From Bacilli bacterium (GTDB lineage: Bacteria; Bacillota_I; Bacilli_A; RF39; UBA660): DNA of 54,592 bases. The notes beneath the pieces are model-generated. The model had not been told where the DNA came from and made no database searches. It saw nothing but the letters and a program-made list of their open reading frames with translations. This document shows, piece after piece, positions 45-49,364 of the stretch. Numbering within the stretch: the first letter of the stretch is position 1; the number at the start of each line of letters is the position of its first letter. The stretch spans positions 1 to 54,592 of the forward strand of contig JBBAEV010000002.1 of NCBI GenBank assembly GCA_041655735.1. The letters are read 5' to 3'. Position numbers and translations under genes: made by a program.

Positions 45-2594
45 ATGAAAAGAAGTGAAGTAGATATTAATAAAATTACTCCTATGATGAAACAATATCT
101 AGAGATAAAAGAAAACTATGAAGATGTTATCTTATTTTTTCGTTTGGGAGATTTTTATGAAATGTTTTTTGAAGATGGGGAAATTGCCTCTCGTGAATTA
201 GAAATAGCTTTAACTGGTAAAAACGCAGGATTAGATGAAAGAATACCAATGTGTGGTATTCCTTATCATGCTGCTAATGTATATATAGATAAGTTAATTG
301 AAAAAGGCTATAAAGTAGGTATTTGTGAACAAATAGAAGATCCTAAAGATGCAAAAGGGATTGTAAAAAGAGATGTTATTCAAATAATTACTGCGGGTAC
401 TGTTATGAATACTGATTCTTTAAAGGAAAATGAAAACAATTTTATAGGTAATATTGTTGATTTTAAACATGCTTATGGTATTAGTTATACTGATATATCA
501 ACCGGTGAATTTAATTGCTTATTAGTTGATCACAATAATACTAAAATAACTACAGAGATATTAAGTTTAGGTATTAAAGAATTAATTGTAACGCCTAATG
601 TTGATATTAAGATAATAGATTTATTAAAGAATCATTTTAGTATTCAAGTTACTATTTATGATAATTTCGATGAAAATAATGAATATAAACATTTATATGA
701 ACATTTAGAAGATATTCGTTATATAAAAACTATTAATCATCTATTATCTTATTTATTAGAGACTCAAAAAAGAAGGCTTACGCATCTTCAAAAAGTAAAT
801 ATAAAAGAGGATAAAAATTATTTAAAGATGGATATTCATACAAAAAGGAATCTAGAACTTACTGAGACAACCAGATTAAAACAAAGAAATTATTCATTAT
901 TATGGCTTTTAGATAAGACAAAAACCGCAATGGGGTCTAGAATGCTTAAAAAATGGATTGAAAATCCATTAATAGATATAAAAGAAATAAACAATAGATA
1001 TGATATCGTAGAAACATTGTTAAATGAATTCATTTTAAAAGAAGAATTAAAAGAATTATTAGAAAGAGTATATGATTTAGAAAGACTAAGTGCAAAAGTA
1101 GCTTATGGTAATGCCAATGCTAGAGATTTACTTCAATTAAACCAATCTATATCAGTGTTTCCTGAAATAAATAAAATATTAAAGAGTTTAAAACACAAAA
1201 AAAAGGTAGAAGAATTAACTAAGTTATTAATTCTATTAGAAGATAGCATTTATGAAAATCCTCCAATTGGCTTAAAAGAAGGATATATAATAAAAGAAGG
1301 ATATAATAAAGATCTTGATGAATTAAAAGAGGCTCGTAAAGGTGGGAAAGACTTTATATCAAAATTAGAAAAAAGGGAAAAAGAAAAAACCGGTATTAAA
1401 AACTTAAAAGTAGGATTTAATAAAGTATTTGGGTACTATATTGAAATAAGCAAAGGAAACTTATCATTAATTAATGATAGTACTGGCTATATTAGGAAAC
1501 AAACTTTAGCTAATTGTGAAAGATTTATAACTGAAGAGTTAAAAGAAAAAGAGGATCTTATTTTAGGCGCTGAAGAAAAGATAATTAATTTAGAATATAA
1601 TTTATTTATTGAAATAAGAGATGAAGTAAAAAAATATATATCTATATTACAAGATAATGCTAAAGTTATCTCAGAAATAGATATTTTATGTTCTTTCGCA
1701 ACCGTTACGGAAACTAATAATTATATAAGACCTAAGCTTATAGAAGAAAGAAAAATAGATATAAAAGATAATAGGCATCCAGTTGTAGAAAAAGTAATGA
1801 CTGAAGAATTTGTTTCTAATAATGTTATTATGGATGAAAAAACTAATATACTATTAATAACAGGACCTAATATGGCAGGTAAATCAACATATATGAGACA
1901 GCTCGCAATAACTATTATTATGGCACAAATAGGTTGTTTTGTACCCGCTTCTAAAGCCACTTTAACTATCTTTGACAAAATATTTACAAGAATTGGTGCA
2001 AGTGATGATTTAGTTAGTGGAGAATCAACCTTTATGGTAGAAATGACAGAGGCTAATTATGCAATTTTAAATGCAACCCCCAATAGTTTAATTCTATTTG
2101 ATGAATTAGGAAGAGGAACCGCAACTTATGATGGTATGGCTTTAGCCTATGCGATAATTGAATATATTCATGAAAATATCAAATGTAAAACACTATTTTC
2201 AACCCATTATCATGAATTGACTGAACTAGGGGAAAATCTTACTAACCTAAAAAACATCCATGTCAGTGCTTATGAAGAAGATGGTGATATCACTTTTCTT
2301 CATAAAATAGAAGAAGGTTCTGTTGATAAAAGTTATGGCATTCATGTCGCTAAACTTGCTAATCTACCAATTTCATTAATAAAAAGGGCTAATCAAATAT
2401 TAAAAGTATATGAAAACAAAGGCAATAAAAGAGAAAAAAGCATTCAAATATCTATTCCTTTTGAAGAAAAAACAAAATTAGATGATAGTAATATTATAAA
2501 GGAGTTAAAAAAAATAAACCCATTAGAAATAACTCCATTAGAGGCATTAAATAAATTGTATGAATTAAAAGAAGTAGTAGAGGAGGTGAATTAA
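45..2594 (+). CDS. mutS: DNA mismatch repair protein MutS
   Basis: Track ORF 36..2594. Motifs GDFYEMF (mismatch-binding), Walker A GPNMAGKST, DELGRGT and STHYHEL. The ATG at 45 follows GTAGGTG; the GTG at 36 is probably not the start. Confidence 0.95.
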   Translation: MKRSEVDINKITPMMKQYLEIKENYEDVILFFRLGDFYEMFFEDGEIASRELEIALTGKNAGLDERIPMCGIPYHAANVYIDKLIEKGYKVGICEQIEDPKDAKGIVKRDVIQIITAGTVMNTDSLKENENNFIGNIVDFKHAYGISYTDISTGEFNCLLVDHNNTKITTEILSLGIKELIVTPNVDIKIIDLLKNHFSIQVTIYDNFDENNEYKHLYEHLEDIRYIKTINHLLSYLLETQKRRLTHLQKVNIKEDKNYLKMDIHTKRNLELTETTRLKQRNYSLLWLLDKTKTAMGSRMLKKWIENPLIDIKEINNRYDIVETLLNEFILKEELKELLERVYDLERLSAKVAYGNANARDLLQLNQSISVFPEINKILKSLKHKKKVEELTKLLILLEDSIYENPPIGLKEGYIIKEGYNKDLDELKEARKGGKDFISKLEKREKEKTGIKNLKVGFNKVFGYYIEISKGNLSLINDSTGYIRKQTLANCERFITEELKEKEDLILGAEEKIINLEYNLFIEIRDEVKKYISILQDNAKVISEIDILCSFATVTETNNYIRPKLIEERKIDIKDNRHPVVEKVMTEEFVSNNVIMDEKTNILLITGPNMAGKSTYMRQLAITIIMAQIGCFVPASKATLTIFDKIFTRIGASDDLVSGESTFMVEMTEANYAILNATPNSLILFDELGRGTATYDGMALAYAIIEYIHENIKCKTLFSTHYHELTELGENLTNLKNIHVSAYEEDGDITFLHKIEEGSVDKSYGIHVAKLANLPISLIKRANQILKVYENKGNKREKSIQISIPFEEKTKLDDSNIIKELKKINPLEITPLEALNKLYELKEVVEEVN

Positions 2595-2986
2595 TGGATG
2601 TATTAAAAAAAGAAAATTGGTGGATATGGTTACTTTTATATGTTTTTGCGGGAAGCGTTCCTACGTATGTGTTGGGTGCTCTTTTAGGTGTTTATAAAAA
2701 AGATGCATGGTATGCTAAATGGCAAAACTGGTTAATAGGTTTTTTGTTCTTCATTTTTCCTGTAATAATTATGTTTACTGTTTTTAGTATTCAAATAACC
2801 ATAGAAGTAGCCAAAAAATTAAAAGTTCCAAATGAAGGCTTATATGCAAATCCTACTATTTGGATATTAGGATTTATAATTCCTATCATTGGATGGTTAG
2901 GACTTGGAATATTATCAATATATATAATTATCTACATATTAATTAATTTATATAATGGTAAAGGTGAAAAATATATAAAAGATTAG
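2594..2986 (+). CDS. small polytopic membrane protein of unknown function, start overlaps mutS stop (TAATG)
   Basis: 130 aa with about four hydrophobic helices (WWIWLLLYVFAGSV, LIGFLFFIFPVIIMFTVF, IWILGFIIPIIGWLGLGILSIYIIIYILI). A hairpin terminator follows immediately. Confidence 0.6.
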   Translation: MDVLKKENWWIWLLLYVFAGSVPTYVLGALLGVYKKDAWYAKWQNWLIGFLFFIFPVIIMFTVFSIQITIEVAKKLKVPNEGLYANPTIWILGFIIPIIGWLGLGILSIYIIIYILINLYNGKGEKYIKD

Positions 2987-3002
2987 GAAACTAATCTTTT
3001 TT
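2977..3002 (+). terminator. intrinsic terminator after the mutS-coupled membrane gene
   Basis: AAAAGATTAG-GAAA-CTAATCTTTT, a perfect 10-bp stem followed by a T-run. Confidence 0.75.
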
Positions 3003-3090
3003 ATTAAATTGTGGTAAAAACAACAAATTTGGTTGAAATAAAATATAATTTATGATAACATATCTTTTCATTAAGGAGATGTATTATGTG

Positions 3091-3615: not shown

Positions 3616-4702
3616 GAACAATAGTCAATGATGTGAAACCAAAAAATTAAGAAGAGAAAGAAAGTAATTCAATCCTTTTTTGAATAGGAGTAAGAAAATT
3701 AAGAGTAAACATAGGAGTGTTGTTAGAGCGATTAAGATATAATTTAGCTTGATATCTAAGGTCATCTAAAGAATAAAATTTAAGGAATTCATAAAATCTT
3801 TTATTGTCATTTCTGTGAGATCTTTCAACTTTACCATTATGTCTAGGAGTTCTAGGTCTAATGGTTTGATGAAGAATATGTTCTTTGCGACAAAGAAGAG
3901 TAAATAAATGATCTTTATTGGTTTTATGATTAAAAGTAAATTCAAAACCATTATCAGTTTGAACGATTTCGGGTTTATAACTAAAATAATTAAAACAACG
4001 ATATAAGAAATCTATAGAATTATGAGAATTACGTTCTTCATAGTGATAAATAAATCTTTCTCTAGAAGCTTCATCAATACAGGTATATTGATAGAAATGA
4101 ATATCTTCAGGTAAAGAAGAAGCTTTACAGAAGTCAGGAACGTATTTAGTATCTATCTGCCATTTAATACCTATATTAGAAGGGGTATCATAGGGTTTGG
4201 GTTTATATTTGTTTTTAACGTATATTTGTTTTTTATAATAGCCTAATCGTTTCATAACACGATATAAAGAAACAGGATGCCTAGAATAACCTTTCTTAAT
4301 TCTAAGACTACCATATAGTTCAAGAAAAGTGAGGTTGGGAGATCTTCTTAGAAAATCAGATATCCACTTTAGTTCTAAAGGAGTATGAGAATTAGGATGA
4401 GGAGAGAGAGGTTTATGGGATTTATCTAATAAGGACTCTTTAGAAGCATCAAAACGATTATTCCATCTGGATAAAGAAGCTTTAGAGATATGATACTTAC
4501 GACAAATATAAGAAGATTTATAACCATTTCTATATAATTTAACAGCATTTAATCTAGTTTGAAATTCATGTGGTAAATAACGCGAATCATGTGATATAAT
4601 ATTCATGTGATTCAATCCTTTCTATATTGTTTTGGTTAATTCAATTATAAAGGTTGAATCACTTTTTGTATAGAAATCGTTTCACATCAATTGTATCGTA
4701 AC
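3616..4702 (-). mobile_element. IS481-family insertion sequence (about 1087 bp)
   Basis: A single transposase ORF. Imperfect terminal inverted repeats share the core TGATGTGAAAC (3629-3639) / GTTTCACATCA (4679-4689), each 13 nt from the element end. The element is flanked by a 27-bp direct repeat. Confidence 0.75.
3647..4606 (-). CDS. IS481-type DDE transposase (HTH + rve integrase core)
   Basis: N-terminal HTH (YICRKYHISKASLSRWNNRF). DDE core WQIDTKYV ... VQTDNGFEF ... RPRTPRHNGKVERSHR, the IS481-like signature. The track start at 4615 is a TTG directly abutting the SD AAAGGA, so the ATG at 4606 is more likely. Confidence 0.85.
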   Translation of the reverse strand: MNIISHDSRYLPHEFQTRLNAVKLYRNGYKSSYICRKYHISKASLSRWNNRFDASKESLLDKSHKPLSPHPNSHTPLELKWISDFLRRSPNLTFLELYGSLRIKKGYSRHPVSLYRVMKRLGYYKKQIYVKNKYKPKPYDTPSNIGIKWQIDTKYVPDFCKASSLPEDIHFYQYTCIDEASRERFIYHYEERNSHNSIDFLYRCFNYFSYKPEIVQTDNGFEFTFNHKTNKDHLFTLLCRKEHILHQTIRPRTPRHNGKVERSHRNDNKRFYEFLKFYSLDDLRYQAKLYLNRSNNTPMFTLNFLTPIQKRIELLSFSS

Positions 4703-9734: not shown

Positions 9735-9761
9735 AAAACGATGAGATTTCTTATCGTTTTT
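9733..9761. terminator. bidirectional terminator between ltaS-like gene and lexA
   Basis: ACGATGAG-ATTT-CTTATCGT with one G-T pair, flanked by an A-run and a T-run. Confidence 0.65.
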
Positions 9762-10377
9762 AAAACTTTCTAAATAGTCCAATAGCTTTACCTAATATAG
9801 TTACATTGTCTAATATAATAGGATCATATAAGTCATTTTCTGGTTGCAATCTAATATAACCATTATCTTTATAAAAAGTTTTTAATGTAACTTCATCCTC
9901 GCTTGTCATGGCTACAACAATATCCCCGTTGTTAGCCACTTTACATCTTTCTATAATCATAACATCACCATCGTGAATATGTTTGTTCACCATGCTATCG
10001 CCACTCACTTCTAAAGCAAATACTTCTTTGCGGGGCGGAACTAGTTCAATAGGTAGTGAAAATGTCTCGTCAGGTCTTTCAATAGCGGTAATAGGATCTC
10101 CTGCGGTAACTTTACCTAATAAAGGGACTTCAATTACTCTATCATATGATGGTTCAAATTCATTCTTTACTAATAACTCAATGGCTCTATTCTTTTGTTC
10201 GTCCTTTTTGATAAAACCCTTAAGTTCAAGATTAGAAAGATGAGAATGAATAGTTGCGGGGGAAGATAAGTTTAAGGCTTTTCCTATTTCTCTGACAGTA
10301 GGAGGATAGCCATTTGACACAATATATTTTTTTATAAAAGTTAGAATTTCCTCTTGTCTATCGGTTAAATTTTCCAT
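9760..10377 (-). CDS. lexA: LexA repressor
   Basis: N-terminal winged HTH (TVREIGKALNLSSPATIHSHL). S24 peptidase motif VSGDSM with a downstream Lys (VTLKTF). SD AAGGAGG. Confidence 0.95.
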   Translation of the reverse strand: MENLTDRQEEILTFIKKYIVSNGYPPTVREIGKALNLSSPATIHSHLSNLELKGFIKKDEQKNRAIELLVKNEFEPSYDRVIEVPLLGKVTAGDPITAIERPDETFSLPIELVPPRKEVFALEVSGDSMVNKHIHDGDVMIIERCKVANNGDIVVAMTSEDEVTLKTFYKDNGYIRLQPENDLYDPIILDNVTILGKAIGLFRKF

Positions 10378-10410: not shown

Positions 10411-10439
10411 ATATTAACATAATAAGTGTAAAAAGTCAA
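10411..10439 (-). promoter_or_regulatory. lexA promoter TTGACT-17-TAATAT (minus strand)
   Basis: The reverse complement reads TTGACT (10434-10439), a 17-nt spacer, then TAATAT (10411-10416). Confidence 0.6.
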
Positions 10440-10450
10440 ACATTTGTTCG
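10437..10450. promoter_or_regulatory. LexA (Cheo-type) box 1, overlaps lexA -35
   Basis: CAAACATTTGTTCG compared with the Firmicute consensus CGAACnnnnGTTCG. Confidence 0.65.
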
Positions 10451-10458
10451 AAAACTTA

Positions 10459-10487
10459 TTGACACGAACAAACGTTTGTATTAATAT
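10459..10487 (+). promoter_or_regulatory. promoter TTGACA-17-TAATAT driving the 46-aa ORF
   Basis: TTGACA at 10459-10464 and TAATAT at 10482-10487. LexA box 2 occupies the spacer. Confidence 0.6.
10465..10478. promoter_or_regulatory. LexA (Cheo-type) box 2
   Basis: CGAACAAACGTTTG compared with the consensus CGAACnnnnGTTCG. Confidence 0.65.
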
Positions 10488-10512
10488 TGAGATGTAATGA
10501 AGGAGGGGTAAT

Positions 10513-10653
10513 GTGAAAATTTTATTAAAAAACAAAATTGTAGTGATCTTTTATGTAATGGTGGTGTTTTTTACATATTTATTAATGTATCGGGTTGAAA
10601 GTTTAGAAAACAAAAACATAAATCATAATAATTTAGTTATTAATATTAGATAA
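10513..10653 (+). CDS. 46-aa single-TM protein divergent from lexA; candidate SOS cell-division inhibitor (YneA/SosA position)
   Basis: Absent from the ORF track, probably because it is too short. A GTG start lies 6 nt after AGGAGG (10501-10506). Product is VKILLKNKIVVIFYVMVVFFTYLLMYRVESLENKNINHNNLVINIR. A terminator follows directly. Confidence 0.5.
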   Translation: MKILLKNKIVVIFYVMVVFFTYLLMYRVESLENKNINHNNLVINIR

Positions 10654-10676
10654 AGACAAAATTTTGTCTTTTTTTC
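10652..10676 (+). terminator. intrinsic terminator
   Basis: Perfect palindrome AAAGACAAAATTTTGTCTTT followed by a T-run. Confidence 0.75.
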
Positions 10677-10734
10677 TTTTCAATTAAAAAATACTCTGTT
10701 ATAATGATAATAGAATAAAATAGGAGGGGTACCT

Positions 10735-12800: not shown

Positions 12801-13232
12801 ATGCGTACATATTATATATTTTGTATTAATAATCATTTTTGTACTTTTTATAAAGAAAATCCGCATATCATTTATGATATGTTAAATCAATTATATAAAT
12901 TAAATAAAAAAGACTTTATGATGGGATACCGTCTTTTTGAACAAATGTGCTTACCTTTTAATAAAAATAGTTTAAACGAGTATATATATAATAATCATAA
13001 TAAAGATATTTCATATCAACATATAAATAATAATCATATAATAAATAATATATATACTAATGAATTGAGTAAATTAATAGTAAAAAATATATATATAAAA
13101 ATAACTACTAATCTTCCTTATTCCATACTCTATAATACTTTAAATAGATATAATGAAAATCTTTTTATTTGTGATTTTAATAATGAAGATTATTTTTGGC
13201 TTGATAAAGTTTCAATGGAAACCCTTGTCTAA
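12801..13232 (+). CDS. SirA (YneE)-like protein, called mainly by position
   Basis: 143 aa, located between tkt and yneF exactly as B. subtilis sirA is. The size is similar. The C-terminal DYFWLDKV...V loosely recalls my memory of the SirA C-terminus. Sequence similarity was not verified. Confidence 0.4.
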   Translation: MRTYYIFCINNHFCTFYKENPHIIYDMLNQLYKLNKKDFMMGYRLFEQMCLPFNKNSLNEYIYNNHNKDISYQHINNNHIINNIYTNELSKLIVKNIYIKITTNLPYSILYNTLNRYNENLFICDFNNEDYFWLDKVSMETLV

Positions 13233-16167: not shown

Positions 16168-17160
16168 ATGGCAAATGATGTTTTTGTTTTTATGGATAAT
16201 GTATTTGGTTGGAGATTATCAAAAAAGGATTTAATGAAAATTGCTAAGGGTATTACCCATTTGTCACGTCGGAATCAGCAGATAATATGTGATAGGAGGC
16301 CTGCTGTCTTTTCACTTTTAACTAATTGTCAAAATATAGATAAAGATATATTAAGAGAAGCTTTGAAAAGTACACCGGGATTAGTGGCATTTGCAAGTAA
16401 TCATCTTGAACTTAGTAATAGAGAAATAATAGGCTGTTTAAATCGTTTAAAATTTCCATATTTTCAATTATTTTATCCCGAAGTTTTTAATGGTGTTATG
16501 TTTGATGTATATTATAAAAGAGTGACAAATAAATGGCGCATTGATAGATATGGTTCTAGTAGATATGACAGTGCTCTTGATCTTAAAACCAGCGATTTAT
16601 TAGAACTAGCCCAAAGACTTACGCTGGATGATTTTACAGAAGAGGAACTAATTGAAAGAAAAAAAGGAGTTCTTGAAGCTTTCTTTGAAGATAAATTTTG
16701 GCAAAAAGAAATAAGAAAAAACTTAGGTATAGAAAAATCTTGGAGACCTGTTCCTAGAGAAGTCCAAAATTTATATTGGCTTAATGCTATTGTTAGTCAA
16801 AAATTTATTCCCCCGAAAGATGATAGTATTTTAAAAAACAAATTATTCTTTTATGAAGTTGCTGAACTTATAAGTTCGGCAGACTCTTGTCATTATACTG
16901 CTGGTGGGGGATATAAGAGCAGTTTCAAAGAACGAAAAGAAATACAAGAGCGAGAAAAGGATTATTTAAGCGTTGTATATAGGGAAGAAGCTATGCCTGA
17001 ATTTATTGGCTGTTATTTGGCGGGATGCGACTTACATCTATGGGATAAAAGTATGAAGATTCCTGATTTACCGTTTTTTGAACAAGCAATCAAACAAATA
17101 CGAGTAGGAATAGTAAGTCAAGATTCTAATGATAAAAATAAAATAAATCAAAAGAAATAA
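16168..17160 (+). CDS. hypothetical 330-aa protein, no recognisable domain
   Basis: Starts 22 nt after the parE stop, behind a GGGGGA SD, and ends at a strong terminator. It uses codons rare elsewhere in the window (CGG, CCG, GCG). I found no matching motif. Confidence 0.6.
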   Translation: MANDVFVFMDNVFGWRLSKKDLMKIAKGITHLSRRNQQIICDRRPAVFSLLTNCQNIDKDILREALKSTPGLVAFASNHLELSNREIIGCLNRLKFPYFQLFYPEVFNGVMFDVYYKRVTNKWRIDRYGSSRYDSALDLKTSDLLELAQRLTLDDFTEEELIERKKGVLEAFFEDKFWQKEIRKNLGIEKSWRPVPREVQNLYWLNAIVSQKFIPPKDDSILKNKLFFYEVAELISSADSCHYTAGGGYKSSFKERKEIQEREKDYLSVVYREEAMPEFIGCYLAGCDLHLWDKSMKIPDLPFFEQAIKQIRVGIVSQDSNDKNKINQKK

Positions 17161-17191: not shown

Positions 17192-17263
17192 ATTAATATA
17201 TTTAATTATATGGTATACTATAAATGCATTTTCTTTGAAAAAAAGAAAAGTTTTTGTGTTATG

Positions 17264-17277
17264 CGAACAAATGTATG
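17264..17277. promoter_or_regulatory. LexA (Cheo-type) box in the uvrB promoter
   Basis: CGAACAAATGTATG has a perfect left half-site and a degenerate right half. It abuts TGGTATAAT. Confidence 0.55.
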
Positions 17278-17309: not shown

Positions 17310-19265
17310 ATGTTTGAATTAAAAAGTAATTATAGTCCAGCTGGTGATCAAAAGAAAGCTATTAAAGAATTAGTATATGGCATAAATAGTAATAAAAAAG
17401 AACAGGTTCTCCTTGGGGCAACTGGTACTGGTAAAACTTATACTATTGCCCAAGTAATAAATGAAGTTAAGATGCCTACTTTAGTTATTGCGCACAACAA
17501 AACATTAGCCGGACAATTATATAATGAGTTTAGGGAGTTATTTCCTAATAATAGAGTTGAATATTTTGTTTCTTATTATGATTATTACCAACCGGAAGCA
17601 TATGTGGTTAGAAGTGACACTTATATTGAAAAAGATGCTTCGATTAATGAAGAAATTGATGAACTTCGTCATAGTACAACCGCTTCTTTAATAAGTAATG
17701 ATGATGTTATAGTGGTTGCTTCTGTCTCTTGTATTTATGGAATTGGCGAAAGAGAAGAATATGAAAAAAAGACACTTACTTTAAGAGAAGGCGTGACTAT
17801 CAATCGTGATGAAGTAATTAGTAAACTAGTTGACATGCAATATACAAAGAATAATATTGATTTTAAGAGAGGAACTTTTAGAGTGCGAGGCGACATCTTA
17901 GAGATAATTCCTATATATGAAAAAGCAAATTCTATTAAGATAGAGTTTTTTGGTGATGAAATCGAAAAAATAAAAGAAGTAGAAGTAGTATCAGGCAAAG
18001 TAATTAAAACTAAGAAGGTTATAACTATTTTTCCTGCTTCTCACTTTGTGACTAGTGAAGATAAGTTAAAAAGAGCTATTACGACAATTAAATCAGAACT
18101 AGAAGAAAGATTAAAATATTTCCGTGAAAATGGGAAACTTCTAGAAGCAGAAAGGATTGAACAGCGTACTAACTATGATTTGGAAATGCTTAATGAAGTA
18201 GGTAGTGTGAGTGGAATAGAAAACTATTCACGTCATTTATCTGGCAAAGAAGAAGGGGAACCACCAGAGACATTAATTGATTTCTTCAACAAACCATTTC
18301 TTACAGTTATTGATGAATCACATGTGACATTACCTCAACTTAGAGCGATGTACCAGGGAGATCATTCTCGTAAAGAGAGTTTAGTTGATTATGGATTTAG
18401 ATTACCCTCGGCTATGGATAATAGACCACTTACTTTTGAAGAGTTTAATAAAAAGTTAGACAAAGTAATATATGTATCAGCCACGCCTTCACCTTATGAA
18501 ATAAAACAAGCTAATAATGTTGTGGTAGAACAAATTATTCGTCCTACTGGTCTTGTTGATCCAGTTATTAAAGTATTTAATCCTACCAATCAAATAGATA
18601 GAGTAATTGAACTTATTAATGAACAAATTAATAAGGGTAATCGTACGTTAATTACTACGCTAACAATAAGAATGGCTGAGGAATTAACTAAATATTTAGA
18701 AGATATAGGAATAAAGGTAGCATATTTACACAGTGAAGTTAAGACTTTAGAAAGAATGCATATTGTGCGTAATTTAAGATTAGGTAAATTTGATGTTTTA
18801 GTAGGTATTAATTTACTTAGAGAAGGTCTAGATTTACCAGAAGTTGGACTAGTATGTATCCTTGATGCGGATAAGGAAGGGTTCCTTCGTAGTAAAACGT
18901 CTTTAATTCAAACAATTGGTCGTGCTGCTCGTAATAAAGATGGCATGGTTGTGATGTTTGCAAGTAAGATTACCGAGGGTATGAAATATGCCATTGATGA
19001 AACTAATCGAAGGAGAGCTATTCAGGAATTATATAATGAAAAAAATAATATAATACCTAAAACTATAGAAAAGGGTATCCCTGAATCCTTAGTAGCTGAA
19101 GAAGAAATAACAAAAGAAAATAAACTTCCAAAAATAACGAAGAAACAAAAAGAAAAAATTATGAAAAATGTTGAATATGAAATGAAAAAAGCCGCGGAAC
19201 AATTAGATTTCGAACGAGCTGCAGAACTACGTGACATATTATTTGAGTTACAAACGGAAAAATAG
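17310..19265 (+). CDS. uvrB: excinuclease ABC subunit B
   Basis: Motifs GATGTGKT and DESH, helicase C-terminal motifs, and a C-terminal UVR domain ([12 protein letters not shown]). The track start at 17235 would include the promoter. The ATG at 17310 follows AAGGAG. Confidence 0.95.
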
Positions 19266-34263: not shown

Positions 34264-34692
34264 ATGGAGAAGTTCACTAAAGTACTCCGTGGATACAATC
34301 CGGTGGAAGTAAACAAATTTATAGATGAGATTATTTTTAAAGTAGAAAGCATGATGGATGAAATAAAGGGAAAAGACAATGAAATCAATCTAATTAAAGA
34401 AAAATTGTCTCATTATAACGCAATTGAAACGACTTTAAATAAGGCGATTTTTGCAGCTCAAGAAGCAGGAGATCAAATTAAAAGAGTATCCCGCCAAGAA
34501 GGTAATTTAATTGTAGAAGAAGCTAAAAAGAATGCTAATAGAATTGTTAATGAAGCCTTAATACGAGCAGAGCGAACTGAATATGAAACAAATTTATTAA
34601 AAAAGAATATTTCCGTATTTAAAAATAGATTAAGAAATATTATTGAAGCTCAACTAGAAATGGTTGACGATATTGATAAAACTGAAATATAA
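34264..34692 (+). CDS. divIVA: DivIVA-domain protein
   Basis: FTKVLRGYNPVEVNKFIDEI followed by a coiled coil. The position upstream of the ileS T-box matches B. subtilis. Confidence 0.82.
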   Translation: MEKFTKVLRGYNPVEVNKFIDEIIFKVESMMDEIKGKDNEINLIKEKLSHYNAIETTLNKAIFAAQEAGDQIKRVSRQEGNLIVEEAKKNANRIVNEALIRAERTEYETNLLKKNISVFKNRLRNIIEAQLEMVDDIDKTEI

Positions 34693-34719
34693 AACAAATG
34701 ATAGAGATGATATAATAAG

Positions 34720-34904
34720 ACATTTTTAGCGAGTTAGGGATGGTGTAAGCCTGATAATAAACTTATTGTATAGATCACTCTTGATGTTTATTTCTGAAAT
34801 GAGTAAGAAGTGACGTTAACTGCGTTAAAGTAATAAGTGTATACATATGTATAAACTAAGGTGGTACCGCGATGATTCGTCCTTATATTAAGGATGATTT
34901 TTTA
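34720..34904 (+). promoter_or_regulatory. T-box riboswitch leader (Ile) with terminator
   Basis: T-box sequence AAACTAAGGTGGTACCGCG (34853-34871). Terminator TCGTCCTT-ATATT-AAGGATGA plus a T-run (34777-34904). Candidate AUC specifier at 34774-34776. Extended -10 TGATATAAT at 34708-34716. Confidence 0.85.
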
Positions 34905-34923
34905 TTATAAAGGAGATGATAAT

Positions 34924-37900
34924 ATGAAAAAAATATTTGAGGAATTAAATAAAGAAAAAGTTAGTGTCGTTGAAAAAGTGATATCAGATAAATGGGAACA
35001 GGATGATATGTTAAATAAAACAATTGAAAATAGAAGTGGAAGCAAAAATTTTGTTTTTTATGAAGGACCACCGACGGCCAATGGAATGCCTGGAGTTCAT
35101 CATGTTTTAGCTCGTAATTTAAAAGATGCTATATGCAAGTATAAAACTATGCAAGGTTATCGCGTTGTTAGAAAAGCAGGATGGGATACCCATGGTCTTC
35201 CTGTTGAAATAGAAGTTGAAAAAGAACTTGGTTTGAATGATAAAAATGGTATTGAAGAATATGGTATAGAAAAATTTAATGAAAAATGTAAAGAATCAGT
35301 ATTTAAATATAAAAATGCTTGGGAAAAAATGACAAAGCAAATGGGTTATTTTGTTGATATGAAAGATCCATATGTTACGTATCATAATTCTTATATTGAA
35401 ACTGAATGGTATATATTAAAGAAATTTTTCGATGAAGGGTTAATGTATAAAGGTCATAAAATAGTACCTTATTGCACTAGGTGTGGGACCGGTCTTGCTT
35501 CTCACGAAGTTGCGCAAGGGTATAAGGAAGTAGAAGTAAATGCTGTAACTGTACCTTTTAAATTAAAAGATGAAAATACATATTTATTAGTATGGACAAC
35601 AACGCCTTGGACATTACTAGCGAATACTGCAGCTTGTGTTAATCCTAACGAAAAATATATTAAAGCTAGTAGCAAAGGATATAATTTTATATTAGCTAAG
35701 AAACTTGCAGAAAAAGTATTAGGAGATAAGTATGAAGTTCTTGAGGAATATAATGGTAAAGATTTAGAATTTAAAGAATACGAACAATTATTACCATTTT
35801 TAAAGGTTGATAAGAAAGGTTTCTTTATTACCTGTGCTGATTATGTAACTATGGATGATGGTACCGGTATTGTTCATATTGCTCCAGCTTTTGGCGAAGA
35901 TGATTATAATGTAGGTAAAAAATATAATTTACCATTTTTAAATCCAGTAGGAGAAAATGGTAAATATATCGAAGGTCCTTGGCAAGGAATGCCAGTTTTT
36001 GAAACTGATATTGAAATAATAAAATATTTAAAGAAAAATGACAAACTATTTAAAAAGGAAAAATTATCTCATAACTACCCACATTGCTGGAGATGTTCAA
36101 CACCACTCCTTTATTATGCTAAACCTAGTTGGTATATAAAGATGACAGAACTTAGAGATAAATTAGTTAAAAATAATAATGAAATTAATTGGTATCCAGC
36201 TTTTGTTGGGGAAAAAAGGTTTGGTAACTGGCTTGAAAACGTTAATGATTGGGCTCTGTCTAGAAATAGATACTGGGGGACCCCTCTTAACATTTGGAAA
36301 TGTGAATGTGGTCATTTAGAAAGTATTGGGTCAATTAAAGAATTAGTTAAAAAAGCAGTTGAAGATATTGATGAAACAATTGAACTACATCGCCCATATG
36401 TAGATAACATCCATATTAAATGCCCAAAATGTGGTAAATTAATAAGTAGGGTAAAAGAAGTAATTGATTGTTGGTTTGATTCAGGAAGTATGCCATTTGC
36501 ACAGTATCATTATCCATTTGAAAATAAAGAACTATTTGAAAATCAATTTCCTGCAGATTTTATATCAGAAGCAATTGACCAAACCAGAGGTTGGTTTTAC
36601 TCATTACTTGCCATTTCAACATTTGTAATGAATACAAGTTCATATAAAAATGTCTTAGTAACTGATTTATTAGTAGATAAAAATGGCCAAAAAATGAGTA
36701 AGTCAAAAGGAAACGCTATAGATCCTTTTGAAATGTTTGAAGAATATGGAGCAGACACCTTAAGATGGTACTTGCTTTATGTATCACCAGTATGGACCCC
36801 AATGAAGTTTGATATTGAGGGGTTAAAAGAAGTTCGTTCTAAGTTCTTTAATACTTTAAGAAACACTTACACTTTTTTTGCACTATATGCTAATACTGAT
36901 GAAATAGAAATAGAAACATGTAATATTAAATATAATGATTTAGAATTAACTGATAAATGGTTAATTAGTAAATATAATAAGTTAGTAAAAAACGTCACAG
37001 AATCTTATGATAGTTATGACTTATATAAAGTGGTAAAAGCAATAACTGAATTTGTGTCTGAAGATTTATCAAATTGGTATATTAGAATTAATCGCAAAAG
37101 ATTTTGGTCATCTAATTTTGATAATTCTAAAAAAGGTGTATATAAAACAACATATGAAGTATTAGTAGGAATAGCACAGTTAATCGCACCAATTTGTCCT
37201 TTCATTAGTGAAGAAATATATATAAAACTTACAAAAAAATACTCTGTTCATACTTCAGATTTTCCAAAACCTAATAATGAATTAATTAATGAAGAAGTAG
37301 AATTAAAAATGGATCTAGTAAGAGATCTAGTTAGTATAGGTAGATTTGTTAGAGAAGATGCTAAAACCAAAATAAGACAACCGCTAAGTGAAATTTTACT
37401 AGATAATAAAAACAAAGATATAATAGGTGATTTAACCAACCTTATACTAAGTGAATTAAATATTAAAAAAGTCCATTATGTAAAAGATTTAACAACTTAT
37501 ATGAATTTATCTGTAAGACCAAATTTTAAGAATGTTGGAAAGTTATTTGGCAGTAGTATTAAAGAATTTCAAAATAAACTAAGTAATTTAGCTACTACGG
37601 ATGTTAATAAACTTCAAAAGAATGAATCTATCAAGATGGTTATTAATAACCAAGAATATAATATCGATGAAACAATGGTAGAAATTCGTATTACTAGTAA
37701 AGAAGGGTTTAATGTTGGTACTGATAATAAAAATTTTGTTATTCTTGATACCACTTTAAATGCTGATTTAATTCAAGAAGGAATTGCTAGAGAATTTATA
37801 TCAAAAGTTCAACAATTACGTAAGAATAAAGACTTTAATGTTATTGATAGAATAATTGTTTATTATAGTAGTAACAATAATGTTAAACAAGCTATTGAAA

Positions 37901-38019
37901 AGCATCTTACCTATATTAAGAAAGAAACATTAGCGGAAAATATAATAGAAAAAGATGGTCTTAATGAGTCGTATGATTTAAATGGTAATGTTACAAAAAT
38001 AGATGTTGAAAAATTATAA
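34924..38019 (+). CDS. ileS: isoleucine--tRNA ligase, long type-2-like form
   Basis: PPTANGMPGVHHV (HIGH region) and KMSKSKGN. About 1031 aa from the ATG at 34924, which follows AAGGAG. The track start at 34894 lies inside the terminator T-run. Confidence 0.95.
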   Translation: MKKIFEELNKEKVSVVEKVISDKWEQDDMLNKTIENRSGSKNFVFYEGPPTANGMPGVHHVLARNLKDAICKYKTMQGYRVVRKAGWDTHGLPVEIEVEKELGLNDKNGIEEYGIEKFNEKCKESVFKYKNAWEKMTKQMGYFVDMKDPYVTYHNSYIETEWYILKKFFDEGLMYKGHKIVPYCTRCGTGLASHEVAQGYKEVEVNAVTVPFKLKDENTYLLVWTTTPWTLLANTAACVNPNEKYIKASSKGYNFILAKKLAEKVLGDKYEVLEEYNGKDLEFKEYEQLLPFLKVDKKGFFITCADYVTMDDGTGIVHIAPAFGEDDYNVGKKYNLPFLNPVGENGKYIEGPWQGMPVFETDIEIIKYLKKNDKLFKKEKLSHNYPHCWRCSTPLLYYAKPSWYIKMTELRDKLVKNNNEINWYPAFVGEKRFGNWLENVNDWALSRNRYWGTPLNIWKCECGHLESIGSIKELVKKAVEDIDETIELHRPYVDNIHIKCPKCGKLISRVKEVIDCWFDSGSMPFAQYHYPFENKELFENQFPADFISEAIDQTRGWFYSLLAISTFVMNTSSYKNVLVTDLLVDKNGQKMSKSKGNAIDPFEMFEEYGADTLRWYLLYVSPVWTPMKFDIEGLKEVRSKFFNTLRNTYTFFALYANTDEIEIETCNIKYNDLELTDKWLISKYNKLVKNVTESYDSYDLYKVVKAITEFVSEDLSNWYIRINRKRFWSSNFDNSKKGVYKTTYEVLVGIAQLIAPICPFISEEIYIKLTKKYSVHTSDFPKPNNELINEEVELKMDLVRDLVSIGRFVREDAKTKIRQPLSEILLDNKNKDIIGDLTNLILSELNIKKVHYVKDLTTYMNLSVRPNFKNVGKLFGSSIKEFQNKLSNLATTDVNKLQKNESIKMVINNQEYNIDETMVEIRITSKEGFNVGTDNKNFVILDTTLNADLIQEGIAREFISKVQQLRKNKDFNVIDRIIVYYSSNNNVKQAIEKHLTYIKKETLAENIIEKDGLNESYDLNGNVTKIDVEKL

Positions 38020-47264: not shown

Positions 47265-48308
47265 ATGAATGATGAAATAGATTTGAGTAAATATAAAATA
47301 AGAACTGATTTAGCTATTGAAGAGATAGAACGATTAAAACCTGAATTAACTGGCATTATATCTGAACAAGAACAAATAAAAGATATAAAAATAACGAGAG
47401 TAACTGTTGAAGAAGAAGGATCAAAAAAAATAGGTAAAAATCCAGGAGAATATATTACTATTGAATTTAAAGATATTACTGATTATGAAAATAAAGAAAA
47501 TTTAAAAAAAATATTTTCTAATGAATTAAAAGAATTGTTAAAAAAGATAAATATCAAACAAACAGATACTTGTTTAATAGTAGGATTAGGTAATAGAAAA
47601 TCTACTCCTGATTCATTAGGCCCTGTTACAGTTGATAGTATTTTAGTAACCAAACATTTATTTGATTTAGATAAAAAGAATGTAAATAGGGGATTTCGCC
47701 CTGTTAGTGCCTTTACACCTGGAGTAATGGGTGAAACAGGCATTGAAACAAGCGAAATTATATTAGGTATAATAGAACGTATTAAACCAGATTTTATAAT
47801 TGCGATTGATGCTTTAGCGTCACAATCTATAAATAGAGTAAACAGAACTATTCAAATGACTGATACAGGTATTCATCCTGGTAGTGGTGTAGGAAACGCG
47901 AGAAAAGAATTAAATAAAAACACAATAGGTATACCAGTTATTGCTTTAGGGGTTCCTACTGTTGTTGATGCAGTTACTATAGTAGGTGATACTATTGATT
48001 ACATTGTTAAACATTTTTCATATAAAACACAAAATATTAATAATCCTGTTAGTAAATTAGCCCCATTAATTAACATTGAAAATGAAAATATAGTAGAACT
48101 TTCTAAAGATCAAAAAGAAAAATTGATGGGTATAATAGGGGGTCTTGAAGAAAATGATTTAAAACAATTAATATTTGAAATATTAACCCCTATGGGTTAT
48201 AACCTTATGGTAACTCCTAAAGAAGTAGATTTTATTATGGAAAAATTAGTAGATATTATATCAGGAGGTATTAATAATACCTTACATCGACAAGTTACGA
48301 AATCATAA
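47265..48308 (+). CDS. gpr: germination protease
   Basis: RTDLAIEE, GLGNRKSTPDSLGP, DALASQS, DTGIHPGSGVGN and MVTPKEVD, closely matching the Bacillus Gpr pattern. Confidence 0.93.
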   Translation: MNDEIDLSKYKIRTDLAIEEIERLKPELTGIISEQEQIKDIKITRVTVEEEGSKKIGKNPGEYITIEFKDITDYENKENLKKIFSNELKELLKKINIKQTDTCLIVGLGNRKSTPDSLGPVTVDSILVTKHLFDLDKKNVNRGFRPVSAFTPGVMGETGIETSEIILGIIERIKPDFIIAIDALASQSINRVNRTIQMTDTGIHPGSGVGNARKELNKNTIGIPVIALGVPTVVDAVTIVGDTIDYIVKHFSYKTQNINNPVSKLAPLINIENENIVELSKDQKEKLMGIIGGLEENDLKQLIFEILTPMGYNLMVTPKEVDFIMEKLVDIISGGINNTLHRQVTKS

Positions 48309-48338
48309 GAGAATATAATTATTCATAAGTTATAGAAA

Positions 48339-49364
48339 ATGGGTGATTGTATGAAAAAAATAAGATTTCGTAAAAAATATCACCAAAATAAAATGAAATA
48401 TTTTATATATATAATAATCATTCTTATTGGTTATAACATAGTTCTATCATTATTTAATAATATTAATATCAATACAACTAATGAAGAATTTATAAAAACG
48501 TTATTAAATCAATCTAATCATCATTTGATATCAAATAAATCATTGATAAATAAAACGCTATATTTTTTATCAAACATAGATTTTAATAAACCAACTACCA
48601 TCTTGCAGAATAATTTTACAAACATTATAAATATAGAAGATTATACTAAGGGGATTATTACTGATATTGAATATAATGATGACTATTCTGAACTTAATGA
48701 GCTTCAAAAAAATAGTGGATATGTTGAGGACCCTAATCCTATTAAAATTGAAGACCCTATTATATATATATATAATACTCATCAATTAGAAAGTTATAAT
48801 AAATCTAATATTGAGGTATATAATATAGCTCCTACTGTTATGACGGCCTCTTATATTATGCGAGAGAAGTTAAATAAAATAGGATTGCCCACTATGGTTG
48901 AAAATGCTGATTTTACTGAAATATTAAGAATTAATAATTGGAATTATTCTGCATCTTATAAAGTGTCAAGAGGATATATTATTTCTGCTAAAGAAAAATA
49001 TAATTCTTTAAAATATTATATTGATATTCATCGTGATTCTACTAATGGAAAATTATCCACAATTGCTATTGATGGGACAAAATATGCAAGATTAATGTTT
49101 GTAGTAGGTTTAGAAAATAAAAATTATAAACCTAATTTAGAATTTGCTAGGAAATTACATCTTATGATAGATAAAGAATATCCTGATCTAAGTAGGGGCG
49201 TACTTACCAAAAAAGGTAAAGGAGTAAACGGGGTATATAATCAAGATCTAGATAGCAACATGTTTTTAATAGAAATAGGTGGAGTGGATAGTAATATAGA
49301 AGAAGTAACTAATTCTATTTCAGTTATGGTAGATATATTAAGTAAATACATAAAGGAGAATTAA
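48339..49364 (+). CDS. spoIIP: stage II sporulation protein P
   Basis: N-terminal TM helix. IYIYNTHQLESY and IDIHRDS motifs of the SpoIIP amidase family. Position after gpr. An alternative start is the ATG at 48351. Confidence 0.85.
   Translation: MGDCMKKIRFRKKYHQNKMKYFIYIIIILIGYNIVLSLFNNININTTNEEFIKTLLNQSNHHLISNKSLINKTLYFLSNIDFNKPTTILQNNFTNIINIEDYTKGIITDIEYNDDYSELNELQKNSGYVEDPNPIKIEDPIIYIYNTHQLESYNKSNIEVYNIAPTVMTASYIMREKLNKIGLPTMVENADFTEILRINNWNYSASYKVSRGYIISAKEKYNSLKYYIDIHRDSTNGKLSTIAIDGTKYARLMFVVGLENKNYKPNLEFARKLHLMIDKEYPDLSRGVLTKKGKGVNGVYNQDLDSNMFLIEIGGVDSNIEEVTNSISVMVDILSKYIKEN

Follow-up and report, generated by a model that had tools for sequence, protein, structure and literature searches.

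The stretch of DNA analysed here (called the window throughout; 54.6 kb, 26% G+C) carries a gene for a 46-residue membrane protein which is divergent from lexA and lies under a promoter with a predicted LexA operator. On the grounds of its position, regulation, architecture and precedent, we consider it moderately probable that this small protein is an SOS-induced division inhibitor of RF39-related Bacilli, acting as an analogue of YneA and SosA and not being a homologue of YneA. The locus, the protein family to which the small protein belongs, and the readings that compete for its function are described below.

The lexA locus and its predicted operators

The lexA gene of the window (its product has 7976 homologues with E ≤ 1e-30) and the small ORF are divergent, with a spacer of 135 bp between them (Table 1). 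An in-frame TGA at 10498 precludes a start of the small ORF earlier than its GTG, and homologues were found to carry a GGAG-type ribosome-binding site (RBS) ahead of ATG starts. The small gene is present in a single copy in the window. On its 3′ side lie tkt, sirA (PF10747, 6.7e-11), yneF/UPF0154, a glutamine amidotransferase gene and a gene for a GyrB/ParE-type subunit, so that the presence of tkt, sirA and yneF downstream, as proposed by an earlier reading made from the sequence only, was borne out by gene content and Pfam. The gap between lexA and tkt-sirA-yneF is presumably the slot of yneA on the B. subtilis map. lexA on the minus strand, the GTG-initiated ORF on the plus strand, its RBS, both boxes and both promoters were all found at the coordinates which that sequence-only reading had assigned to them. 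It had also called the ORF unannotated, which holds for its function but not for the gene call, as the ORF and its homologues stand in public collections as "hypothetical protein"; the accompanying supposition that gene finding misses the ORF is not so, because gene callers do list it under that name.

Table 1. Features of the lexA locus and the predicted uvrB operator, in window coordinates
Feature	Position	Strand	Remarks
lexA, 205-aa SOS repressor	9760–10377	−	Pfam LexA_DNA_bind (2.5e-25) and Peptidase_S24 (1.3e-31)
lexA promoter-like site, TTGACT-17-TAATAT with TG extension	10411–10439	−	consensus scan, 9/12 matches
LexA box 1 (predicted), CAAACATTTGTTCG	10437–10450		1 mismatch; 3-nt overlap with lexA −35
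Small-gene promoter (predicted), TTGACA-17-TAATAT	10459–10487	+	consensus scan, 10/12 matches; encloses box 2
LexA box 2 (predicted), CGAACAAACGTTTG	10465–10478		1 mismatch; fills the −35/−10 spacer of the small-gene promoter
RBS, AGGAGG	10501–10506	+	6 nt 5′ of GTG; read from the sequence
Small gene, 46 aa, MKILLKNKIVVIFYVMVVFFTYLLMYRVESLENKNINHNNLVINIR	10513–10653	+	GTG start; TAA stop at 10651–10653
Weak intrinsic-terminator-like hairpin, AAAGACAAAA/TTTTGTCTTT, then T-run TTTTTCTTTT	10652–10681 (palindrome 10652–10671)	+	fold −7.2 kcal/mol, z about −2.1
LexA-type box (predicted), CGAACAAATGTATG	17264–17277		abuts the uvrB −10, TGgTATAAT; second predicted SOS operator in the window

A palindrome right after the stop codon had been read as a terminator. 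The palindrome is indeed present and its stem at 10652–10671 is kept in the sister species; as a terminator, on the other hand, it is weak, and the terminator consensus scan made no call at 10652–10681 because the stem has two G-C pairs, i.e. fewer than three. In a genome this rich in A and T, the hairpin could plausibly act as a terminator, though a weak one. The following tkt gene has a promoter of its own, TTTTCA-17-TATAAT with a TG extension, at 10677–10705.

The two boxes of the spacer are the only matches with at most one mismatch to CGAACNNNNGTTCG (CGAAC-N4-GTTCG) in the 54.6 kb, each being one base off the canonical consensus. Shuffled sequences contained 0.11 such boxes on average, and a count of two was reached in 1 of 100 shuffles. 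When up to two mismatches were allowed, five boxes were obtained in the window against 2.2 by chance, which is only a mild excess; the two-mismatch boxes at 18909 and 26198 lie inside the coding regions of uvrB and parC and were taken as chance matches. The scan and the shuffles together bear out the two near-consensus LexA boxes that had been noticed in the spacer, one on the −35 of lexA and one inside the promoter of the small ORF. At sequence level, the locus thus has a Firmicute-type operator that overlaps core promoter elements.

Box 1 is likely the autoregulatory operator of lexA. An equivalent of it is present in most related loci, those lacking the small ORF included, and the TTGAC(A/T) beside it is conserved among relatives. 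In the promoter of the small gene, TTGACACGAAC was found to be nearly invariant over the family loci, and box 2 (at most two mismatches) lies directly after TTGACA, 29–38 nt 5′ of the start codon, in 34 of the 37 distinct intergenic sequences; the remaining three loci have a three-mismatch box at the same place. Strains of the sister species (L006 and L007 versus L005, L009 and L010) vary within both boxes, with CGAAC changed to CAAAC and GTTCG to GTTTG, and the palindrome is retained. Such variation suggests that the LexA of this clade tolerates CAAAC half-sites or that the strains differ in the strength of repression, and from the CAAAC...GTTTG variants the operator of the clade is probably C(G/A)AAC-N4-GT(T/A)(C/T)G.

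The LexA-type box at uvrB gives a comparison within the same genome. The true start of uvrB is the ATG at 17310, which is preceded by an RBS, and not the listed TTG at 17235 (UvrB domains were confirmed); the extra codons between the two starts cover the uvrB promoter and its LexA-type box. The GTATG half-site variant of the uvrB box also occurs in box 2 of several relatives. Since uvrB carries this box type, the motif is common to the small gene and a canonical SOS gene of the same genome. As a prediction from sequence, control of the small gene by LexA is well supported.

Apart from the genes named above, ltaS, mutSL, uvrABC, parEC, comEC and holA are encoded in the window. An IS element with an rve-type integrase/transposase and HTH domains is present at 3647–4615 (minus strand), between the ORF following mutS and mutL, and the usual mutS-mutL adjacency is broken there. 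A 330-aa ORF at 16168–17160 (plus strand), between the parE-like gene and uvrB, gave zero Pfam matches. An ordinary T-box leader (113 bits) at 34689–34887 (plus strand) stands before a class I tRNA synthetase gene (ileS-like) at 34894–38019.

Conservation of the family and its linkage to lexA

A protein search with the single sequence returned one homologue only, a 46-aa protein with 85% identity and an ATG start, encoded in a sister species in which the gene order is the same. Genome contigs were also scanned with the LexA protein, and only distant LexA genes with 33–46% identity were obtained. Relatives were found in 80 metagenomic loci which were fetched by LexA-homologue alignment and in which the DNA upstream of each lexA was inspected. 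The check that had been suggested in the earlier reading, namely a look for small TM ORFs divergent from lexA in relatives, was run in this way, and about 35 loci (LexA 56–72% identical to that of the window) were found to carry an ORF of 43–50 codons with a GGAG-type RBS and one hydrophobic segment. It is located on the opposite strand and starts 120–150 nt from lexA. A first profile was built of 29 syntenic ORFs and searched against 5.8 billion proteins, yielding 262 proteins at E ≤ 1; the family surfaced only with a profile. A second profile was searched against 1.84 billion representatives and gave 140 clusters (50% identity) at E ≤ 1e-3, the best match having an E-value of 1.9e-15. The lengths in these clusters are mostly 40–66 residues (range 29–112), and 46 is the commonest length among the 206 distinct members of 38–52 residues. 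The longer profile matches (73–112 aa) were considered as a bridge to YneA and rejected: in them the start was called too far upstream or the frame is fused by read-through, and LysM is absent.

The nucleotide changes between orthologues were then compared. In the 16 computable pairs out of 18, pN/pS ranged from 0.0 to 0.65, with a value of 0.23 between the window and the sister species; the start codon, the RBS and the open frame are retained across homologues. From these comparisons it is as good as established that the small ORF represents a real, conserved protein-coding gene family. No Pfam domain was detected in the small protein at E ≤ 0.01, and the proteins retrieved with the profile likewise have neither a Pfam domain nor a functional name; NCBIfam searched with the 29 members gave nothing credible (three unrelated models, matched by one member each, E 0.011–0.099), and the small protein family had no match in PADLOC or PHROGs. 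These negative searches argue against a known domain, a known defence component or a phage (holin-like) origin. Judged by detectable homology, of which there is none to any described family, the 46-residue family is new and uncharacterised, and it would fall within a known functional class.

As the loci described so far had come via LexA, a reciprocal test was performed, for which five members were picked among the protein-search matches and located in their DNA. All five were found to be divergent from lexA, with a spacer of 127–189 bp. The downstream neighbour in these loci is polA, ftsK, a convergent radical-SAM gene, or a 139-aa ORF (no Pfam match) at the position of sirA that is followed by yneF. 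Linkage to lexA alone is conserved, and the downstream gene varies.

The small gene is absent beside lexA in about 20 of about 55 related loci (LexA at least 56% identical), and it is therefore dispensable or replaceable, having been lost, moved or replaced repeatedly. The gene-less loci (L020, L033, L034, L039, L044 and about 15 others) have only the lexA-proximal box, TGTCAAACA..TGTTT, and their divergent gene is polA-like, tkt or another one. In one locus (L046, LexA 62% identical, lexA at 2409–3020 in locus coordinates), lexA faces another ORF of 47 aa with a single TM segment, which is unrelated and is not matched by the family HMM. It is followed after 77 nt by the gene of a 380-aa FtsW/RodA/SpoVE protein (PF01098, 6e-79), so that a TM peptide and a SEDS gene stand together beside lexA. 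Both the replacement in L046 and the absence of the gene elsewhere fit the known rapid turnover of SOS division inhibitors. In another locus (L032), the LexA-boxed promoter is separated from the family ORF by a 62-aa soluble ORF (MEYYTVSDIQ...) without a Pfam match, and the small membrane gene would there be the second in a two-gene SOS unit. More distant loci (LexA about 48% identical) have YneA-type proteins of 105–118 residues with TM and LysM at the lexA-divergent position, and others have DUF896/ynzC.

Architecture, proposed function and competing readings

The hydropathy profile of the small protein has one TM segment at about residues 9–26, with a maximum of 2.74 at residues 9–25; it is preceded by a basic N-terminus (residues 1–8) and followed by a polar tail of 20–21 residues up to residue 46, in agreement with the one TM helix and 21-aa tail originally read from the sequence. 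Over the 206 distinct members, the net charge is +2.3 in the N-terminal flank and −0.9 in the 12 residues after the helix, and the predicted topology is N-in, C-out. An AlphaFold2 monomer computed with the family alignment is one helix over residues 3–45, with a mean pLDDT of 93 for residues 11–20, 56 for residues 31–40 and 49 for residues 41–46; such a monomer says nothing on the target. The family has the motif M-[KE]-F-[LI]-K-N-N-K-G-x-I-x-F-Y-L, which covers the N-terminus and the boundary on the inner side of the membrane, and it also conserves T-L midway along the helix, a stretch of acidic and basic residues directly outside the membrane and a C-terminal N-x-Y-V-x-x-N, the middle of the tail being poorly conserved. 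The protein of the window retains K-N-K, F-Y and N..V.N.

Like yneA, the small gene points away from lexA, and the spacer between the two contains predicted LexA operators (an arrangement kept in 34 of 37 related loci); it also occupies the same slot ahead of tkt-sirA-yneF. YneA has a single N-terminal TM helix with the C-terminus outside, which is also predicted for the small protein, and late action on septal wall synthesis would be expected for it as for YneA. On the other hand, YneA is a protein of about 105 residues with an extracellular LysM domain, whereas the small protein has 46 residues and none: LysM was not detected in it by Pfam at E ≤ 0.01, while the same scan detected LysM in the control YneA-like proteins of L068, L081 and L084. 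When the small family was compared by hhalign with the LysM YneA-like proteins of the same scan, a probability of 1.3% was obtained, i.e. no relationship; the lack of a LysM domain stated in the earlier reading was confirmed by the Pfam scan. In YneA, the TM helix binds TM7 of FtsW, and the TM domain alone reaches the septum without blocking division; LysM is required (PMC13396833), and it is the binding of peptidoglycan by this domain that is needed for inhibition (PMC13396833). YneA is cleared by YlbL and CtpA (PMC6051672).

SosA is next to lexA, small, has one TM helix and lacks LysM, and the small protein has all these properties. SosA has 77 aa, its conserved membrane-proximal external segment is essential, and it accumulates without the CtpA protease, its extreme C-terminus controlling turnover by CtpA (PMC6851548). 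As SosA works via a short external segment after the TM helix, it is the closest model for function without LysM. It differs in length, the external part of SosA being about 47 residues against about 20 in the tail of the small protein, and in range, SosA being restricted to staphylococci and the 46-residue family to RF39-related Bacilli. There was no 77-residue protein among the 140 profile matches in the 1.84 billion representatives, and neither NCBIfam nor Pfam gave a link to SosA. SidA of Caulobacter crescentus is an SOS-induced inner-membrane peptide of 29 residues that binds FtsW (PMC4211646), and in AlphaFold 3 models FtsW TM7 has SidA on one side and YneA and SosA on the other (PMC13396833). 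As is predicted for the small protein, it is a LexA-controlled peptide of barely more than a TM helix, and it demonstrates that a tiny membrane peptide can stop late division (PMC4211646). It differs in its host, a Gram-negative alphaproteobacterium, in having its gene away from lexA, in its unrelated sequence and in its shorter length. The idea of a new minimal family therefore stands as far as the family is new and would be the shortest in Firmicutes, but it would not be the shortest SOS division inhibitor, since SidA has 29 residues (PMC4211646). Comparing the three, the 46-residue family most likely resembles SosA or SidA in its working; it lacks both the LysM domain and the homology that would place it with YneA, and it is not demonstrably a relative of SosA.

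SOS-induced small membrane division inhibitors are lineage-specific and unrelated in sequence. No sequence similarity was found between the family and any proven division inhibitor by Pfam, NCBIfam or profile-profile comparison with LysM YneA-like proteins. In relatives, ddl and genes for a Mur ligase, PcsB/M23 and FtsW-family proteins are present in neighbouring DNA; these bacteria therefore make peptidoglycan, and they have both a wall and a divisome on which an inhibitor could act.

If the small protein is a division inhibitor, LexA would sit on box 2, between the −35 and the −10, in the undamaged cell and block RNA polymerase, and box 1 would serve in the autoregulation of lexA. Upon DNA damage, RecA-stimulated self-cleavage of LexA would free the strong promoter, and the peptide would build up in the membrane. 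Its TM helix would most likely dock on the septal peptidoglycan synthase (FtsW-PBP2B with FtsL/DivIC/DivIB), and the short conserved external tail might stall septal wall synthesis, so that division would be delayed until repair is complete; extracytoplasmic proteases would probably clear the peptide afterwards. In this scheme the binding of LexA, the induction by damage, the target, the division arrest and the proteolytic clearance are all inferred by analogy. As the TM helix of YneA alone is inactive, a protein with a 20-residue tail would need a different inhibitory step. We tentatively suggest, as a possibility that we hold with much less confidence than the general function, that a TM helix with a 20-residue tail (N-x-Y-V-x-x-N) suffices against FtsW-PBP2B without a peptidoglycan-binding domain, which would make this family of 43–50 residues a natural minimal inhibitor of the Gram-positive septal SEDS-bPBP synthase.

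The conservation of the small gene and its LexA-type control are as good as established from comparative evidence, but its function may also be another SOS-linked membrane role: it could serve a membrane protease as adaptor or decoy, modulate competence or the uptake of DNA, or act as a brake specifically on the asymmetric septum of sporulation. The sporulation genes sirA, gpr and spoIIP are in the same window, and the confinement of the family to one clade may point to a lineage-specific need. Still, no domain or neighbour points to any such role, and because the downstream neighbour changes freely, only the linkage to lexA is informative, such linkage being the hallmark of checkpoint inhibitors. 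We therefore consider a role of this kind unlikely.

Some small hydrophobic peptides under LexA control are membrane toxins; TisB (29 aa) and DinQ (27 aa) of E. coli are, like the small protein, small, hydrophobic and LexA-boxed. A toxin of this kind, which would insert into the membrane, reduce the proton-motive force and lead to growth arrest or persistence with only a secondary effect on division, is the main rival to a division inhibitor, and both the single AlphaFold2 helix over nearly the whole protein and the lack of a recognisable interaction domain (Pfam, NCBIfam) are compatible with it. TisB and DinQ depolarise the membrane, have long leaders and are controlled by antisense RNAs or sRNAs of their own, whereas neither such an RNA (among known Rfam families) nor such a leader is evident at the small gene. 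There is no Rfam family at the locus, the only one in the window being the T-box elsewhere. The 135-bp spacer is filled by two promoters, with a leader of about 25 nt from the −10 to the start and a consensus RBS, leaving no long processed leader, and promoter-like matches on the minus strand near the 3′ end of the gene are at background level. Furthermore, the conserved motifs at the external C-terminus and the inner boundary suggest specific protein contacts and not bulk membrane damage, and every characterised Gram-positive gene at the lexA-adjacent position is a division inhibitor (PMC6851548). We consider a toxin quite unlikely on these grounds.

That there is no functional protein, and that the frame merely happens to lie in a leader or small RNA under LexA control or in a transcript reading through into tkt, might be supposed from the very short ORF, the ease with which short hydrophobic ORFs arise at 26% G+C and the weak terminator, but it is highly improbable in view of profile E-values down to 1e-15 among 1.8 billion proteins, the conserved length, RBS and start codon, the excess of synonymous changes, the downstream gene that varies and is convergent at one locus, and the TG-extended promoter of tkt itself.

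The host lineage and the meaning of the family

The MAGs in which one subfamily is annotated bear the names Bacilli bacterium, Mycoplasmatota bacterium and Candidatus Faecimonas, the LexA of the last being about 64% identical. Candidatus Faecimonas corresponds to the GTDB genus CAG-877 (family CAG-611, order RF39) and has genomes of about 1.4 Mb with 28% G+C. In the window, whose 26% G+C genome is related to RF39-type MAGs, sirA, gpr (germination protease) and spoIIP were found (12801–13232 and 47265–49364), and from this gene content the lineage may form endospores.

The assignment as a division inhibitor gives a likely function for a recurrent "hypothetical protein" of RF39-type bacteria, which are uncultured and common in human and animal guts, and it indicates that a complete LexA checkpoint has been retained in spite of their reduced genomes. 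If the tail proves sufficient for inhibition, the inhibitory contact would be unlike the LysM mechanism of YneA, and more than 200 natural variants would be at hand to map it. A division inhibitor of this size would also be a compact peptide scaffold against an antibiotic target, the SEDS polymerases. Since the TM helix of YneA docks on FtsW without inhibiting it (PMC13396833), the 46-residue family would offer a clean natural test of what is further required. Its main interest is as a minimal natural test case of how inhibitors without LysM stop septal synthesis.
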